Origin: a virus
Reading direction: 5' to 3' (one strand)
DNA length: 64,000 nucleotides
Virus record (IMG/VR): IMGVR_UViG_3300017613_000793
Coordinates: 5,195-69,194 of that record
A program made the translations under genes and the position numbers. Of this stretch, positions 951 through 23,300 are shown one piece after another. Numbering within the stretch: position 1 is the stretch's first letter; every line of letters begins with the position of its first letter. The notes below the pieces were generated by a model that ran no database searches, was not told the origin of the DNA, and worked only from the letters and a program-made list of their open reading frames with translations.

Positions 951-987
951 ATTATATTAGTTGACATCTCTCTTGTCAATGTCAACT
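951..987 (-). promoter_or_regulatory. Consensus sigma70 promoter overlapped by a 9-bp inverted repeat
   Basis: Minus strand TTGACA(979-974)-17 bp-TATAAT(956-951); inverted repeat AGTTGACAT(959-967)/ATGTCAACT(979-987). Confidence 0.8.
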
Positions 988-15449: not shown

Positions 15450-15479
15450 AGTATACCACAAAACATATTCTTTTGTCAA
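15450..15479 (-). promoter_or_regulatory. sigma70-type promoter, 18-bp spacer, extended -10
   Basis: TTGACA(15479-15474)-18-TATACT(15455-15450), preceded by TGG. Confidence 0.75.
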
Positions 15480-18358: not shown

Positions 18359-18373
18359 TTTTTGTCTCCTTTT

Positions 18374-18568
18374 TTAATCACAATCAAAATGTTCAAGCAT
18401 TGTCTGAAGCAGGTGGTCATAGTCTCCACTTCTTGCTTCATCCATTACTTCTTTTCGTTTTTCCTCAGACCATCCTGCACGTCTTGCAGATTGGTTAGCT
18501 CTTGCTAAAATAAAAAAAGCATTACCATCCAATCCAACCAGTTTCAATTTAGGTTTTACATTCTCCAT
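18374..18568 (-). CDS. Small phage protein
   Basis: RBS AAGGAG; motif LVG.DGNAF.IL...SGDYDHLL recalled from small phage proteins. Confidence 0.75.
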   Translation of the reverse strand: MENVKPKLKLVGLDGNAFFILARANQSARRAGWSEEKRKEVMDEARSGDYDHLLQTMLEHFDCD

Positions 18569-18578
18569 ATTGTCTCCT

Positions 18579-18749
18579 TTATATTTTTTTGTTCATCAGA
18601 TGTGGAAGCTCACAAGCTTCCAGGAATCTGGTCTTATCAAATTTAACATTGTCCCTCTTCAGTATTCCCATAAGGTCAAGCACAAAATCATCATTTGGTT
18701 TATGCTCCTTAATGGAACCAGCCAACGCAACATAATTTTTTCTATGCAT
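18579..18749 (-). CDS. Small phage protein (56 aa, not in the ORF track)
   Basis: RBS AAGGAG; MHRKNYVALAGSIKE...DNVKFDKTRFLEAC. Confidence 0.7.
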   Translation of the reverse strand: MHRKNYVALAGSIKEHKPNDDFVLDLMGILKRDNVKFDKTRFLEACELPHLMNKKI

Positions 18750-18764
18750 TTAAACTCTCCTTTT

Positions 18765-18956
18765 TTAAGATATGTTTACTTCCACAAAAGTAGCATCTTC
18801 ATAGCAACACAACCCAGAACTGATTGCATCCGATATTGCATTCTCAATAAGGTTGGTAGCATAAAAGCTCCACAAGAATACTCTATCAAAATGGTTATCA
18901 TAAATCCAAACTGCATAACCACGAATACTTTCACTAACTCTTTCATTCATTAACAA
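18765..18956 (-). CDS. Hypothetical protein
   Basis: Small ORF in the operon with RBS AAGGAG. Confidence 0.5.
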   Translation of the reverse strand: MLMNERVSESIRGYAVWIYDNHFDRVFLWSFYATNLIENAISDAISSGLCCYEDATFVEVNIS

Positions 18957-20190
18957 TCTCCTTATTTATTTTAGCTTTTGTGATGATGGTCTGTTTGGTA
19001 TCCTGGAACTCTTCAAACTTCTTAATGGTTGCCTTCATGGAAACCACCTGACCTTCAACCAGTCCTTGCCCACTAGAAGCAAACCAAACAAACACATGCT
19101 TCTCATCTGTGAATTTATAGAGATGAGTGATTCCATACTGAGTATCAAAGGTTGTATGGAATACCAATTTTAAATCACTGAGGTCCACCCTGTCCTTGAT
19201 TTCAGCCGGGTAGTATTCAATGGTCTGAGTCTTTTCTGCCCTCTGCTTTTTTTCCTCTATATAACCCATAGCTTTTTTGTAAGCTTCAATCATGTACCCT
19301 GCTTGTCCAACGTGGTAAGAAGGGACGGTTCCGGCTCTTGCAATATTGCGGAGAGTGAACTTAAACTCATTGTCCCAAGCTTCCTCATCAGCAATTTCTT
19401 TTGCCCACTGGATTGCTTCTTGTGCTAAGTCTGCATCTTCCTGGTCTATGATGAAATGTTCATAATGCTTTTTAGCTGATGGTGTCTTTGCGTGCATCCA
19501 ATTGAGTGCATCAACTGCAGTGGCAATACCTAAATCCTGGCTTGCCTTAGCTTTAGAAATGAATCCCTCAGCCTTAGTGATGGTTGCCACTCTGGTTAAA
19601 TAATCTCCCAAATAAAACTCACCAATTTCTTCTTGGCTCCCACGGCCTAAATCCCAATCCTCTTCATTTATGCCTTCCAAGTCTTCCATGATTGCCCAAT
19701 ACCGTGCCAGCTTTTCAGGTGACACATGCCCAGTAAAATCTTTAACACAACTGGAACCAACCTGTCTCCAAGTTCCAAGCATGCTGTGCTGTACAAGGTA
19801 AGCTTTCCGTCTTTTACGATTGCTCAAGCAGTGCTCACACAGATGACTGTTGCCGTTGTCTTTAAGATAAAAGGAAGGGATAGTTGCATTCTTGGAAACC
19901 TTTTTAATCAGAAGTCCAAACTCTTCAGAGAACTCAAACCGTGCTACAAAAGTCCAGCCTGAAATTACAGGTGACTCACCTTCCACGTCAATGGTAACAT
20001 ACGGAACTTCTATAGTTGCCAATCCATGCTTCCAAGTTTTAATCCAAGGTTTAGACACGGTGACTTTGATTTCAGCCACGCCTATCTTGACCGCTCTGTT
20101 CTGAAGCTTCTTGATGGATTTAAGAAACCCCTTCAAACTAACTTCAGGAATTTGAAATTGATTGAGGTTGATGTCTTGGATGCTACTCAT
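18943..20190 (-). CDS. Phage protein with zinc motif and C-terminal OB-like fold
   Basis: CEHC...R.R, QVGSSC.KDF, C-terminal YG.T..YKF.D...FVWFAS. Confidence 0.75.
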   Translation of the reverse strand: MSSIQDINLNQFQIPEVSLKGFLKSIKKLQNRAVKIGVAEIKVTVSKPWIKTWKHGLATIEVPYVTIDVEGESPVISGWTFVARFEFSEEFGLLIKKVSKNATIPSFYLKDNGNSHLCEHCLSNRKRRKAYLVQHSMLGTWRQVGSSCVKDFTGHVSPEKLARYWAIMEDLEGINEEDWDLGRGSQEEIGEFYLGDYLTRVATITKAEGFISKAKASQDLGIATAVDALNWMHAKTPSAKKHYEHFIIDQEDADLAQEAIQWAKEIADEEAWDNEFKFTLRNIARAGTVPSYHVGQAGYMIEAYKKAMGYIEEKKQRAEKTQTIEYYPAEIKDRVDLSDLKLVFHTTFDTQYGITHLYKFTDEKHVFVWFASSGQGLVEGQVVSMKATIKKFEEFQDTKQTIITKAKINKEIVNE

Positions 20191-20363
20191 ATCTGCACCT
20201 TTATTTCTACATAGACTTGGTGCATATCATTGTAATGGGTACAGAAAGCCTTGAGTCCTTTTGCCCGGTGTGCATCTAACATGTCTTGAGCAAAGTGATT
20301 ATCATTTGTTTCATAAACATACCGACATTCTACCCCGGCATACCATTTGTTTTCTCTCTTCAT
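20187..20363 (-). CDS. Small hypothetical protein (58 aa, not in the ORF track)
   Basis: RBS AGGAG; MKRENKWYAG...; ATGA overlaps at both ends. Confidence 0.65.
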   Translation of the reverse strand: MKRENKWYAGVECRYVYETNDNHFAQDMLDAHRAKGLKAFCTHYNDMHQVYVEIKVQI

Positions 20364-20836
20364 TTTTTGTCTCCTATATTATATTCTTTCCAAGTCTTGT
20401 CCCAAACTTCCTGGAGAAGTCTACAATTATTCCTAAGTGACTTGCTTCTGGAAAGGACAACTCTTCTGACACTACCTCTTCTCTCTTCCATACCAAGAGT
20501 CCAACCACTGGGTGAAGTCCAGGAACCAGGAAGTAGAGCCTTGAGTGAACTGTCAGTAGTACATTTCCAACTCATGGTCTCAGTCTTGGAAACAACTCTC
20601 TCAAGTCTAACACTCTTCCAAGCCCAAGGTCTGAGTGCAAGAGCAACAAGAGCACTGGAGAGATTCATATCAGTCAGCTTCAGTTCCCAAGTTCTGTTGT
20701 TCCATTCTTCCAGTTCCTGCTCACTACTCTTCTTAGGAAGAGCACTCATTTTGGCTTGGCTCTTCATCCATCTCTTCAGTTCCTTGCTAGGCTTGCTGAG
20801 ACTTTTCTTACTCATCATCCTTGCTTGCTTATTCAT
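20360..20836 (-). CDS. Hypothetical basic Ser/Trp/Lys-rich protein in compositionally odd DNA
   Basis: RBS GAGGT and ATGA coupling to the next gene; no Phe or His residues. Confidence 0.5.
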   Translation of the reverse strand: MNKQARMMSKKSLSKPSKELKRWMKSQAKMSALPKKSSEQELEEWNNRTWELKLTDMNLSSALVALALRPWAWKSVRLERVVSKTETMSWKCTTDSSLKALLPGSWTSPSGWTLGMEERRGSVRRVVLSRSKSLRNNCRLLQEVWDKTWKEYNIGDKK

Positions 20837-20900
20837 AATTTACCTCTACTTATAATACGACTCAACAGGGTATTTTATTCAATATTGCCAAAATAAAAAT

Positions 20901-20971
20901 AGGTTAGGAATGCCGGAGACCTTGAGCGGTCTGGTTAGAAACATACTTTTTATTTGTGGCATTCCCAACCT
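20901..20971 (-). terminator. Terminal 14-bp stem of the ncRNA cassette followed by a U-rich tract
   Basis: AGGUUGGGAAUGCC/GGCAUUCCUAACCU enclosing hairpin AGACC-GCUCAA-GGUCU, then AUUUUUAUUUU. Confidence 0.55.
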
Positions 20972-21015
20972 TTAAAAAAATATTTATAGGAGAAAATCAG
21001 AAAGCTTAAATATAT

Positions 21016-21097
21016 TGCAGGGAGTGATGGGATTGGATACCCACAACCTTCCGGGTCTGATGCCGGATGCTCTACTAGCATTTGAGCTACACTCCCT
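21016..21097 (-). ncRNA. Aberrant tRNA-like RNA (8-nt anticodon loop, 8-nt T-loop)
   Basis: Acceptor GGGAGUG/CACUCCC, D-stem GCUC/GAGC, anticodon stem UCCGG/CCGGA with loop CAUCAGAC, T-stem GUGGG/CCCAU with loop UAUCCAAU; no encoded CCA. Confidence 0.75.
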
Positions 21098-21156
21098 AAT
21101 CAGCACAAGGTCTTGTCTCATAAGACTCACCTGCACTGTCCATGGCTTGTAAAAAT

Positions 21157-21190
21157 GTGAGGAAGAGCCGGAGGTGGAACCCTTCCCCAC
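21157..21190 (-). ncRNA. Hairpin presenting an anti-Shine-Dalgarno loop
   Basis: GUGGGGAAGGGUU/GGCUCUUCCUCAC stem (several G-U pairs) with loop CCACCUCC. Confidence 0.6.
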
Positions 21191-21236
21191 GGAGACAAAA
21201 AAATGATTAACAAATTTTTTAAATTAAAATTACGGT

Positions 21237-21309
21237 CCGGGTGTCTTGCTCCCCAGTGAAGCAAGAATTTTTTCGTAGTGTTATACCCACCACCTGGATG
21301 TTCACCCGG
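21237..21309 (-). ncRNA. Small three-way-junction RNA
   Basis: CCGGGUG/CACCCGG closing stem, hairpins GUGGUG/CACUAC and UCUUGCU/AGCAAGA. Confidence 0.55.
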
Positions 21310-21349
21310 CAAAAATTTATCAAAGGAGTTTACTATGCAAAATTATATT

Positions 21350-21765
21350 GACACTGTGAGACTTGGACAGACAGTTGAACATTCAGTATTCAAGTCGGCT
21401 ACTCGGTGACAACGAACTTCACAGCCACTCTATGGCTCCATCCATTGGGCTTGGATAATGACTCCAGCCTTACCATACCTAGTTTCAACTTTTTGTAACC
21501 GGGACCACCCGGACCTTGCTCACTCACCACAGGAATGCCCTAGACAACTTGTTCCAGAACAAACGGAGTATGTGTATCTTGTAGACAATCCAAGTATTTT
21601 CGTGTGAGAAGCCGTGGCTCCAATTCATGATATGGCCTTCTCATGGTCTTGTGGGTTGCTTACGCTGAAGCTTCATAGCAGTGACCCCTCACCACGTCTG
21701 CTTCCCCAACGTTCTTGTATCAGTCACAGCACCTCAGCTATGACCCTCACACGTCTCACAGCATC
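21350..21765 (-). ncRNA. Large (416 nt) structured non-coding RNA of unknown class
   Basis: 13-bp terminal helix GAUGCUGUGAGAC/GUCUCACAGUGUC, numerous internal hairpins, G-U pairs favouring the minus strand, no minus-strand ORF, promoter upstream. Confidence 0.72.
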
Positions 21766-21813
21766 CAAACAAAGACAAGGTATTAAGCCCTGTCTGTGTT
21801 ATCTACTTATTAA

Positions 21814-21826
21814 GTTGTCAAAGAAC
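21814..21826 (-). promoter_or_regulatory. boxA-like antitermination element
   Basis: GTTCTTTGACAAC about 25 nt after the predicted start site; resembles rRNA-leader boxA (GYTCTTTRANAA). Confidence 0.6.
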
Positions 21827-21855
21827 TCAGTCACTCAATCCTGGTGACCATTATC

Positions 21856-21885
21856 AGTTTACCAAAAAACTATTTCTCTTGTCAA
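21856..21885 (-). promoter_or_regulatory. Promoter of the ncRNA cassette
   Basis: TTGACA(21885-21880)-18-TAAACT(21861-21856), preceded by TGG; embedded in the 3' end of the sigma gene. Confidence 0.75.
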
Positions 21886-22659
21886 GCACTTTTTTATAAA
21901 AGAACTAAATCTAAATCTATCTGTTGATTCTCTATTAATAGTAATGTCCCAATTCTTTTTTGGAACCATCTTCTTTACTTTCTTATAACACTTACTCTGA
22001 CTCCAATAATGAACTTCAACCTCTTCCATTTTAATTGATTCAGGTTCAAGTTCAGGTTCAACCCATTCTTCTTTTGGCCTTAATGTAATTTCCTTTTTAT
22101 AACAGTTGTTTTGATTCCAATAATGAACCTCAACTTGTTCCATGGTCTCATCTAAATCCTGTGAAGGTTTTGATTTTGGTACAAACTTGTCTCTGATGTT
22201 TCGTATTATCTGAGCAGTCCATCGTTGACTATACCCTAAAACTTTTCCAGCTTCCTCTGTGGACATACCATCAAACACAACCAACTGAACTAAACGCCTT
22301 TGCTTTGGTGTCAACTTGTCTAACAAGTTTTGTTTCTGTTGGAACAATTGTTTAAACTCAAATATATCCATAGGAGTTTTTTTATCTTGCGTATCTTTAA
22401 AAAATGCTTTCTCATGGTCCAACAATCTTCTTTGTTGGTATTTCCATCTAATATGGTCCACCACTGCCCGGTCTGCAATTGTGTAAGCATAAGTTTCAAG
22501 AGTGCTCCTACCCTCAAACTTATCCAACGCCTCAACCAATCTCACATATGCATCAGATATAACATCTTCAATAACTTGGTGTGGTCTACCTGCAAGTTTA
22601 CCATAAATATGCCCACGCATTTTCTGTAGAACCTTATCTGAAATTTCAAACATACTCAT
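21859..22659 (-). CDS. sigma-70 family (ECF-like) RNA polymerase sigma factor with C-terminal duplicated motif
   Basis: Region 2 EDVISDAYVRL...KFEGRSTLETYAYTIA...VDH.R; region 4 LTPKQRRLV.L....GMSTEEAGKVLG. Confidence 0.85.
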   Translation of the reverse strand: MSMFEISDKVLQKMRGHIYGKLAGRPHQVIEDVISDAYVRLVEALDKFEGRSTLETYAYTIADRAVVDHIRWKYQQRRLLDHEKAFFKDTQDKKTPMDIFEFKQLFQQKQNLLDKLTPKQRRLVQLVVFDGMSTEEAGKVLGYSQRWTAQIIRNIRDKFVPKSKPSQDLDETMEQVEVHYWNQNNCYKKEITLRPKEEWVEPELEPESIKMEEVEVHYWSQSKCYKKVKKMVPKKNWDITINRESTDRFRFSSFIKKCLTREIVFW

Positions 22660-22674
22660 GCCTTGAAATTTTTT

Positions 22675-22750
22675 TGGAGCGTCCTGTCAGATTTGAACTG
22701 ACACCCTCAGGTTGGAAGCCTGGAATGCTACCGTTAAACACCAAGGACGC
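22675..22750 (-). tRNA. tRNA-Gly(TCC)
   Basis: Cloverleaf, anticodon loop CTTCCAA, encoded CCA. Confidence 0.9.
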
Positions 22751-22751
22751 T

Positions 22752-22825
22752 TGGCACTGACTGTGGGATTTGAACCCCTTCTCCCGGTAGACAGCCGGGT
22801 GTGTTACCATTACACTACAGCCAGT
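22752..22825 (-). tRNA. tRNA-Asp(GTC), non-canonical
   Basis: Anticodon loop CTGTCTA; extended acceptor helix, short T-stem, G discriminator plus CCA. Confidence 0.7.
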
Positions 22826-22828
22826 GTT

Positions 22829-22904
22829 TGGCAGGTCCGTCTGGATTTGAACCAGAGGCCACGGTTTTGGAGACCGTGATGTTAAGCCACTACACCACAG
22901 ACCT
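22829..22904 (-). tRNA. tRNA-Trp(CCA)
   Basis: Cloverleaf, loop CTCCAAA, G73 plus CCA. Confidence 0.9.
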
Positions 22905-22907
22905 GTG

Positions 22908-22980
22908 CGGAGCATAGGGGAATTGAACCCACTAATACAAGGTTGAAAGCCTTGTGTCCTAACCATTAGACTAATGCTCC
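22908..22980 (-). tRNA. tRNA-Glu(TTC)
   Basis: Cloverleaf, loop CTTTCAA; bulged T-stem; no encoded CCA. Confidence 0.8.
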
Positions 22981-22981
22981 A

Positions 22982-23058
22982 TGGTGGAGACGGTGGGACT
23001 TGAACCCACAACTTCCTGCTTGCAAAGCAGGTGCTCTCCCAAATTGAGCTACATCCCC
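22982..23058 (-). tRNA. tRNA-Ala(TGC)
   Basis: Cloverleaf, loop TTTGCAA, G3:U70 pair, encoded CCA. Confidence 0.93.
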
Positions 23059-23069
23059 AAAAATATTAT

Positions 23070-23144
23070 TGGAGGGTTGGAGTGGATTTGAACCACAATC
23101 TTCCGAGTTCACAGCCCGGTGCTCTACCTTTGAACTACCAACCC
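23070..23144 (-). tRNA. tRNA with GTG anticodon (His-like, lacks G-1:C73)
   Basis: Loop CTGTGAA; acceptor GGGTTGG/CCAACCC, U discriminator plus CCA. Confidence 0.8.
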
Positions 23145-23146
23145 AT

Positions 23147-23222
23147 TGGTGGGAAAGACAAGACTTGAACTTGCAACCCCTGGCTCCCAAAGCCAGTGCT
23201 CTACCAATTGAGCCACTTTCCC
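23147..23222 (-). tRNA. tRNA-Pro(TGG)
   Basis: Loop TTTGGGA; acceptor GGGAAAG/CTTTCCC, A73 plus CCA. Confidence 0.88.
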
Positions 23223-23225
23223 TGT

Positions 23226-23300
23226 TGGCTGTGGTGGATAGATTTGAACTATCAACACCCTGTTTAACAGACAGGTGCTCTACCATTGAGCTACACCACA
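23226..23300 (-). tRNA. tRNA-Asn(GTT)
   Basis: Loop CTGTTAA, G73 plus CCA. Confidence 0.92.

Follow-up and report, generated by a model that had tools for sequence, protein, structure and literature searches.

The gap at positions 20837-21858 in the genome of a marine tailed phage can be read, with moderate confidence, as a small cluster of non-coding RNAs transcribed from the gene strand. Positions refer to the window, i.e., the whole analysed stretch of 64,000 nt, which corresponds to bases 5195-69194 of a 69,194-nt IMG/VR virus record. The largest element of the gap, a 416-nt stretch termed RNA-A (21350-21765, minus strand), is a plausible and credible candidate for an orphan structured ncRNA, represented by a single sequence and backed by moderate statistics; it is supported by its MFE fold, shuffle tests, the lack of a matching Rfam family and the lack of a coding signal. 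The chance that RNA-A is a real ncRNA, folding independently and transcribed with the rest of the cluster from the gene strand, is put at about even.

The record, with a completeness estimated at 75%, stems from an uncultured marine tailed phage that encodes an SbcC-like nuclease, a family-A DNA polymerase, DnaB-like and other helicases, a major head protein and a prohead protease. Nearly all long ORFs of the window lie on the minus strand; its GC content is 40%, with a strong G/C skew. In minus-strand order, an array of eight tRNA genes (Asn, Pro, His, Ala, Glu, Trp, Asp, Gly; 22675-23300, minus strand, identified by both the Rfam scan and ARAGORN) is followed by a sigma-factor gene, the gap with RNA-A, an ORF of 158 aa and a gene of 415 aa. 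The sigma-factor gene (21859-22659, minus strand; 266 aa) lies directly upstream of the gap and is of the ECF type (Pfam Sigma70_r2, r4 and ECF; PHROG "RNA polymerase sigma factor"). Its product combines sigma-2 and sigma-4 regions with a C-terminal extension of about 100 aa that carries two repeats of the form VEVHYW.Q..CYKK. The 415-aa protein downstream of the gap belongs to PHROG 2319, which is labelled RecT-like in the annotation of some phage records; the gap is placed just upstream of replication and recombination genes (RecT-like 415-aa protein, helicases and polymerase). The two ORFs that follow the gap, of 158 aa (20360-20836) and 58 aa, together spanning 20187-20836 on the minus strand, had coding scores of 0.04-0.05 vs 0.19-0.36 for their neighbours, neither matched a Pfam or PHROG family, and the Atlas model of the 158-aa ORF was poor (pLDDT 0.40). 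It is doubtful whether the two are real genes; if not, the non-coding region would be longer. Elsewhere, a 64-aa ORF (18374-18568, minus strand) within an apparent 584-nt gap at 18359-18942 was 60-62% identical to ORFs of two distant relatives, G001 and G002, far above the conservation of its neighbours.

With 1,022 nt, the gap upstream of the 158-aa ORF is the longest stretch of the window without a minus-strand ORF of at least 70 aa, among six such gaps of at least 200 nt. Stop codons interrupt all of its frames (16, 25 and 25 on the minus strand; 20, 10 and 13 on the plus strand), and none of its eight stop-free pieces matched Pfam (E≤1) or the PHROGs (E≤0.1). Codon-usage scoring, for which 19 long genes of the phage served as the training set, gave at most 0.05 in all frames across RNA-A vs 0.19-0.36 for the real neighbouring genes. 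The stretch is therefore solidly non-coding. Its composition is unusual as well: the GC content of RNA-A, 48.8%, lies 3.1 sd above the window mean (40.4 +/- 2.7%), and the immediate flanks of this GC-rich core have only 28-36%. A GC fraction of at least 0.47 occurred in just 3 of 306 windows, two of them being the tRNA array and one coding.

The helices listed in the preliminary description do exist, and their reading sense is the minus strand (21765→21350), the strand of all the genes. The ends had been described as pairing fully, GAUGCUGUGAGAC with GUCUCACAGUGUC; 13 bp can indeed form, including two G·U pairs, whereas the MFE structure uses 11 of them (21765-21755 with 21360-21350), with a mean pair probability of 0.99. 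Within this closing helix the MFE places domain 1 (nt 13-165; 21753-21601) and domain 2 (nt 171-405; 21595-21361), and the proposed domain closures GUGUGAG/CUCACAC and CUUGGA/UCCAAG are both present, with mean pair probabilities within 0.75-0.98. Four of the listed hairpins, GGUCAUAGC/GCUGUGACU, GUGGUGA/UCACUGC, CCGGG/CCCGG and AGCCA/UGGCU, are also part of the MFE structure (mean probabilities 0.75-0.98), whereas AUCCA/UGGAU and UUGAAUA/UGUUCAA pair on paper, compete with MFE helices and are absent from it. The two pseudoknots put forward are 6-bp complementarities that partly overlap with MFE helices. The word ACAAG does recur four times as stated, yet without enrichment (2.05 per kb on the strand, hence 0.85 expected here; outside the eight most enriched 5-mers). 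Embedded in 721 nt of its surroundings, RNA-A kept the same fold and its own terminal helix (z -3.3, 0 of 20 shuffles as stable). The sole hint of self-association in the sequence, and a weak one, is the palindrome GGCC, located in the predicted 10-nt loop GAAGGCCAUA (RNA-A nt 126-135).

Comparison with dinucleotide shuffles, proposed at the outset as a check, favoured RNA-A in part. The full length reached z -2.46 with 2 of 100 shuffles as stable (z -2.36 and 3 of 300 in a repeat, i.e., z about -2.4), and domain 1 reached z -2.78 (6 of 500), whereas domain 2 was within chance (z -1.39, 30 of 300). The complementary strand folded less well, both over the full length (z -1.20, 12 of 100) and by domain (z -1.69 for domain 1 and -0.70 for domain 2). 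RNA-A thus has a strand-specific fold that is better than that of its shuffles. The ensemble is well defined, too: its diversity was 60 vs 107 +/- 27 in shuffles and its mean positional entropy 0.66 vs 1.09 +/- 0.27, values as low being found in 4 of 120 shuffles in either case.

A control within the genome was more sober. When G and C content was used to predict, by regression, the MFE of 306 overlapping minus-strand windows of 416 nt, RNA-A had a residual of -1.48 sd and 17 of the 306 windows, mostly coding, were lower, even if its raw MFE was equalled or bettered in only three. The closing helix served to pick the boundaries of RNA-A by eye, a choice that inflates the z-score; together with the 17 better genome windows this makes the fold energy suggestive and not decisive. 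Nor is the terminal helix significant alone, since ten helices of 13 bp (at most two G·U pairs, span up to 600 nt) occur on the minus strand of the 64 kb, about one per 6 kb. Three of these ten fall inside the gap, which makes up 1.6% of the window; with 0.16 expected, the Poisson P is about 6e-4 at a threshold chosen post hoc. Of the 12 such helices on the plus strand, none falls there. The enrichment fades at shorter lengths (12 bp: 3 of 34, P about 0.02; 11 bp with at most one G·U: 1 of 40; 10 perfect bp: 1 of 34).

Several putative signals accompany RNA-A on the minus strand. Upstream, a sigma-70-type promoter-like site with an extended -10 element (TTGACA-18-TGgTAAACT; 21856-21885) matches 10 of 12 consensus positions, with the TG present, and overlaps the last codons of the sigma-factor gene; transcription would start near 21849. 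A twin at 15479-15450, likewise intergenic, is identical to 21885-21856 at 24 of 30 positions; the pattern used in the search came from the two sites themselves, which makes the chance figure for it circular. The twins (15450-15479 and 21856-21885, both minus strand) share TTGACAA.AGAA...GTTTT.TGGTA.ACT, and a third site (969-979, minus strand) has TTGACAAGAGA in common with them. Judged by sequence, the three may be early promoters of the phage. Between promoter-like site and RNA-A lies T1 (21773-21795), a terminator-like hairpin of 8 bp, four of them G-C, followed by UUGUUUGG; the hairpin also forms in the 721-nt fold and is probably the terminator of the sigma-factor gene or an attenuator just before RNA-A. 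A promoter with a terminator-like hairpin 60 nt further on is an odd driver for a 700-nt RNA, a point against the arrangement.

Downstream of RNA-A, fold and inverted repeat delimit a 117-nt domain, RNA-B (21207-21323, minus strand), closed by a 13-bp A/U-rich helix. Its segment CACCCGGACC (21243-21234) is perfectly complementary over 10 nt to GGUCCGGGUG (21515-21506) in the CCGGG hairpin of RNA-A; 34 perfect 10-nt complements occur in the window and 0.5 are expected in the gap, so that the single pair between RNA-A and RNA-B is near chance. RNA-B also carries GCCGGGUG, which makes alternative pairings possible. A second terminator-like hairpin, T2 (21157-21190, minus strand; 13 pairs, six G-C, then AUUUUUACAA), formed in the larger folds and is likely the 3' end of an RNA-A/RNA-B transcript. 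Beyond it follow a degenerate tRNA-like element (21019-21096, minus strand) and, just before the next ORF, hairpin C (20901-20971, minus strand), an inverted repeat of 71 nt with a stem of 13-14 bp, a 43-nt loop and a U-rich run thereafter. As RNA-A, RNA-B, the terminator-like hairpins, the tRNA-like element and hairpin C stand in a row, the gap appears as a cluster of structured RNA modules.

The tRNA-like element forms a cloverleaf that scores 44.2 bits with the Rfam tRNA model, above the gathering score of 29, and was missed by ARAGORN and by the whole-window gathering scan. Whereas tRNAs have 7 nt in the anticodon and T loops and G18G19 in the D loop, both of its loops (anticodon loop CAUCAGAC) have 8 nt and GG is missing from its D loop; nor does it encode the CCA present in its neighbours. 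In an alignment its nearest member of the array was tRNA-Ala(UGC), of which it seems, by its sequence, to be a decayed or repurposed copy.

Taken as a transcription unit, the cluster would work as follows. Host RNA polymerase would initiate at the sigma-70-type promoter within the end of the sigma-factor gene and pass T1 as a weak terminator or attenuator. It would then transcribe the 416-nt RNA, its ends clamped by the 11-13-bp helix around two multi-branched domains, followed by the 117-nt domain, and would halt at the strong hairpin terminator T2, beyond which the degenerate tRNA-like element is found. RNA-A would most likely act in trans, early in infection, as a stable, compact structural RNA that binds protein or RNA. 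The transcription of RNA-A, its ends and its stability are inferred, as would be any role as a scaffold, as a decoy or in self-assembly.

ROOL and GOLLD, two large RNAs that form RNA-only cages and were discovered only through their many relatives, are the closest known systems. A scan with covariance models, as suggested in the preliminary description, assigned RNA-A to no family of Rfam 15, neither at gathering scores over the whole window nor at E≤10 with permissive filters over 1,301 nt and 436 nt. This release presumably includes the models for RNase P, tmRNA, 6S, HEARO and group I/II introns. No Rfam row for RNA-A came from ROOL, GOLLD, OLE, HEARO/omega RNA, 6S, RNase P RNA, tmRNA or group I/II introns; ARAGORN found no tmRNA either, and Rfam searches at E≤10 revealed no tRNA remnant inside 21350-21765, the one tRNA-like element being elsewhere in the gap. 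The rows that did touch 21350-21765 were at chance level and far under their gathering scores: TP53TG1_1 (13.4 bits) and sR18 (15.1 bits) overlap its edges, and sR60 and GlsR19 (11 bits) lie on the strand opposite RNA-A.

[quoted passage not shown] Two sources describe ROOL and GOLLD as phage or prophage RNAs, often near tRNAs, and ROOL as a large multi-junction non-coding RNA of unknown function (PMC5737381; 10.1101/2024.12.08.627333). For GOLLD, the recent study mentions phages and tRNA islands as context, with tRNAs sometimes in the linker of the RNA, one marine-metagenome example downstream of a tRNA, and expression that rises in phage lysis (10.1101/2024.12.08.627333). RNA-A resembles ROOL in being phage-borne, with the tRNA array 0.9 kb upstream and the tRNA-like element 250 nt downstream. 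It differs in its length (416 nt vs an average of 581 nt), in the fewer junctions of its MFE structure, in not being matched by the ROOL model of Rfam even at E≤10 and in a fold that derives from one sequence without covariation support. As with GOLLD, RNA-A lies in a phage beside a tRNA island; it differs in lacking an Rfam match, in its length, which is roughly half that of GOLLD (>800 nt), and in showing no similarity to the conserved 3' region. RNA-A is ROOL/GOLLD-like in setting only and a member of neither family.

Two further systems offer partial parallels. "Species 1 and 2" of phage T4 are stable RNAs of about 120-140 nt with unknown function inside the transcription unit of an 8-tRNA cluster, co-processed with the tRNAs. 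By this description RNA-A, beside an 8-tRNA array, is similarly placed; it differs in its 416 nt and in the sigma-factor gene between it and the array. MALAT1 carries with mascRNA a tRNA-like 3' processing module of a long non-coding RNA. By analogy, the tRNA-like fold downstream of RNA-A could recruit RNase P or RNase Z to set RNA ends; here, however, a strong terminator-like hairpin stands between RNA-A/RNA-B and the element, which is 250 nt from RNA-A. We also considered a TnpB/omega-RNA locus. Atlas matches of the 158-aa ORF to OrfB_IS605 clusters (0.91) rest on few shared features, and a six-frame search of the genome gave one 11-bit match to PF01385 elsewhere and none to PF07282. With neither domain at the locus, the idea was dropped.

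The preliminary description had called RNA-A a new or divergent class, and a second member was sought at several levels with none found. BLASTN searches of the DNA against a phage collection and a plasmid collection gave no match, and in viral contigs neither the sigma factor nor the 158-aa ORF nor the DNA polymerase led to a close relative. The sigma factor is an orphan: it retrieved itself alone among 533 candidates in a search of 5.8 billion clusters, and its best other match among 1.84 billion representatives was 30% identical (E 1.4e-15). Its surroundings are better connected, as the 415-aa neighbour has 16 relatives (best 65% identical, on a 2.6-kb contig) and the capsid protein 324, up to 95% identical. 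Capsid relatives with 81-95% identity lie on contigs as long as 100,958 nt in Logan/ENA assemblies. The relatives compared comprised 24 loci from the capsid alignment, 39 from the helicase alignment and five whole records (355,221 bases); they are distant, with identities of at most 65% for the capsid protein and 45% for the helicase. BLAST against them returned only chance words of 14-16 nt, nhmmer of the gap had no match at E≤10 in the five records or the 63 loci, TBLASTN with the sigma factor and the 158-aa ORF found nothing, and no comparable ORF-free stretch was present near the helicase in the five records and 63 loci. In G001 and G002, homologs of the flanking 415-aa and 310-aa genes are present, and there is neither a sigma homolog (23 window ORFs tested) nor a match to the gap. 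As the flanking genes are kept and the sigma-RNA island is absent from both, the locus looks like a lineage-specific insertion.

A covariance model built from the single sequence of RNA-A nt 1-170 recovered itself alone in 975,324 bases and nothing in three genomes; in 151 genomes of the phylum Acidobacteriota it gave one partial match of 57 nt (E 0.44), and nothing credible was found across 154 prokaryotic genomes. A degenerate hairpin-plus-junction pattern had no match in viral contigs. Two short words were followed up and rejected as chance: a 21-mer with one match in metagenome contigs, where a GC-rich organism codes for Gly-Pro repeats, and an 18-mer with one match in viral contigs, within a helicase-like gene. 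As no homolog of RNA-A was found, no pair is backed by covariation, which counts against it. Among the sequencing runs listed as matching the region none was an RNA run. Two DNA runs of one study (marine sediment and seawater) yielded identical low-depth fragments and no variants in the gap; a third run of the study was also compared.

The most serious competing account, which we consider somewhat unlikely, takes the fold as a product of chance in decaying or newly acquired DNA, i.e., as the best-looking structure in 1 kb of unconstrained sequence left by dead genes or tRNA genes or brought in by a GC-richer insertion. It would accommodate the 17 of 306 ordinary windows that fold better after composition correction, a domain 2 no better than shuffles, 13-bp helices that arise about once per 6 kb by chance, the decayed tRNA copy within the gap, the likewise weak coding scores of the adjoining ORFs (20187-20836) and the absence of the whole sigma-RNA island from the relatives searched. 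Against this account, neither protein remnants in the eight stop-free pieces (Pfam, PHROGs) nor tRNA remnants inside 21350-21765 (E≤10) were detected. The strand specificity of the fold, the restriction of long G·U-containing helices in the gap to the gene strand, the well-defined ensemble and the promoter and terminator that frame RNA-A argue in the same direction, as does the fact that 1 kb of useless DNA is rarely retained in phage genomes.

A cis-acting role is rather unlikely in our estimate. Here the structured region and its three terminator-like hairpins would form a leader or read-through switch that gates transcription from an early sigma/tRNA unit into the replication genes, which could be achieved by attenuation or by an RNA that renders the polymerase terminator-resistant. 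The put RNAs of phage HK022 make the polymerase terminator-resistant in this way. All genes lie on one strand, so upstream transcription must cross the gap, and the terminator-like hairpins at 21795-21773 and 21190-21157, the hairpin with U-run at 20971-20901, the phage sigma-factor gene immediately upstream and alternative pairings that the 10-nt complementarity of RNA-A and RNA-B could allow would all suit such a switch. Yet RNA-A is, with 416 nt, far above known antitermination or attenuator RNAs, keeps its own terminal helix as a self-contained unit in the larger fold and matches no Rfam cis-regulatory family, and one 10-nt complement in the gap is near the expectation of 0.5. Highly improbable, finally, is an element that acts as DNA, with the inverted repeats serving as a replication origin, packaging site or recombination site beside the replication module. 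Its position just upstream of the replication and recombination genes and the AT-rich stretches (28-36% GC) around the GC-rich core would fit, whereas the long helices require G·U pairs and are gone on the other strand (3 vs 0), the cumulative GC skew has no turning point here and all direct-repeat families in 20700-22000 have two copies only. The idea of an origin of replication was dropped, as there are no iterons in 20700-22000.

If RNA-A is a structured ncRNA, it might further be the first member of a new class of large phage structural RNAs, parallel in function to ROOL and GOLLD, unrelated to them in sequence and smaller. It would be expressed early from a host-type promoter close to the sigma factor and tRNA island of the phage, self-assemble or serve as a decoy that engages a host factor (e.g., a defence directed against tRNAs), and have the tRNA-like element in the same module. 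This extension is speculative and we hold it to be distinctly unlikely; the roles named at the outset (scaffold, ribozyme or decoy) have the genomic context as their only basis. Should it be true, RNA-A would be a third unrelated RNA in the setting of ROOL and GOLLD, which would suggest that phages in general, and not in two isolated cases only, make use of big structural RNAs beside their tRNA islands, and a marine lineage with its own sigma factor would supply a smaller molecule (416 nt) to work on. At present its value is that of a lead for targeted sequencing and structure probing.

Additionally, the search for relatives brought up another conserved non-coding element. The 18-mer of the T arm of the tRNA-like element had four matches, none with RNA-A nearby. 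A conserved block of two hairpins, non-coding, is common to three phage contigs of IMG/VR that are AT-rich (27-32% GC; L095: 9835-10010, minus strand; L096: 8905-9075, plus strand; L097: 7915-8100, plus strand). The block contains the same T-arm-like hairpin of 18 nt as the tRNA-like element of the window, plus a conserved UUGGUUGGC. Compensatory changes are seen in 3 of the 11 pairs predicted for its first hairpin, and the block has no Rfam match at E≤0.1. The 18-mer common to this block and the tRNA-like element may be a coincidence.

The capsid protein provided some observations on the hosts of related phages. One match with 52% identity lies on a 1.6-kb contig binned as Thorarchaeota, which is probably a binning artefact. 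Relatives with 38% identity were found in two MAGs of Candidatus Aminicenantes, one of them on a contig of 1.32 Mb; these matches hint that prophages exist and give a clue to the hosts used across the wider capsid clade.
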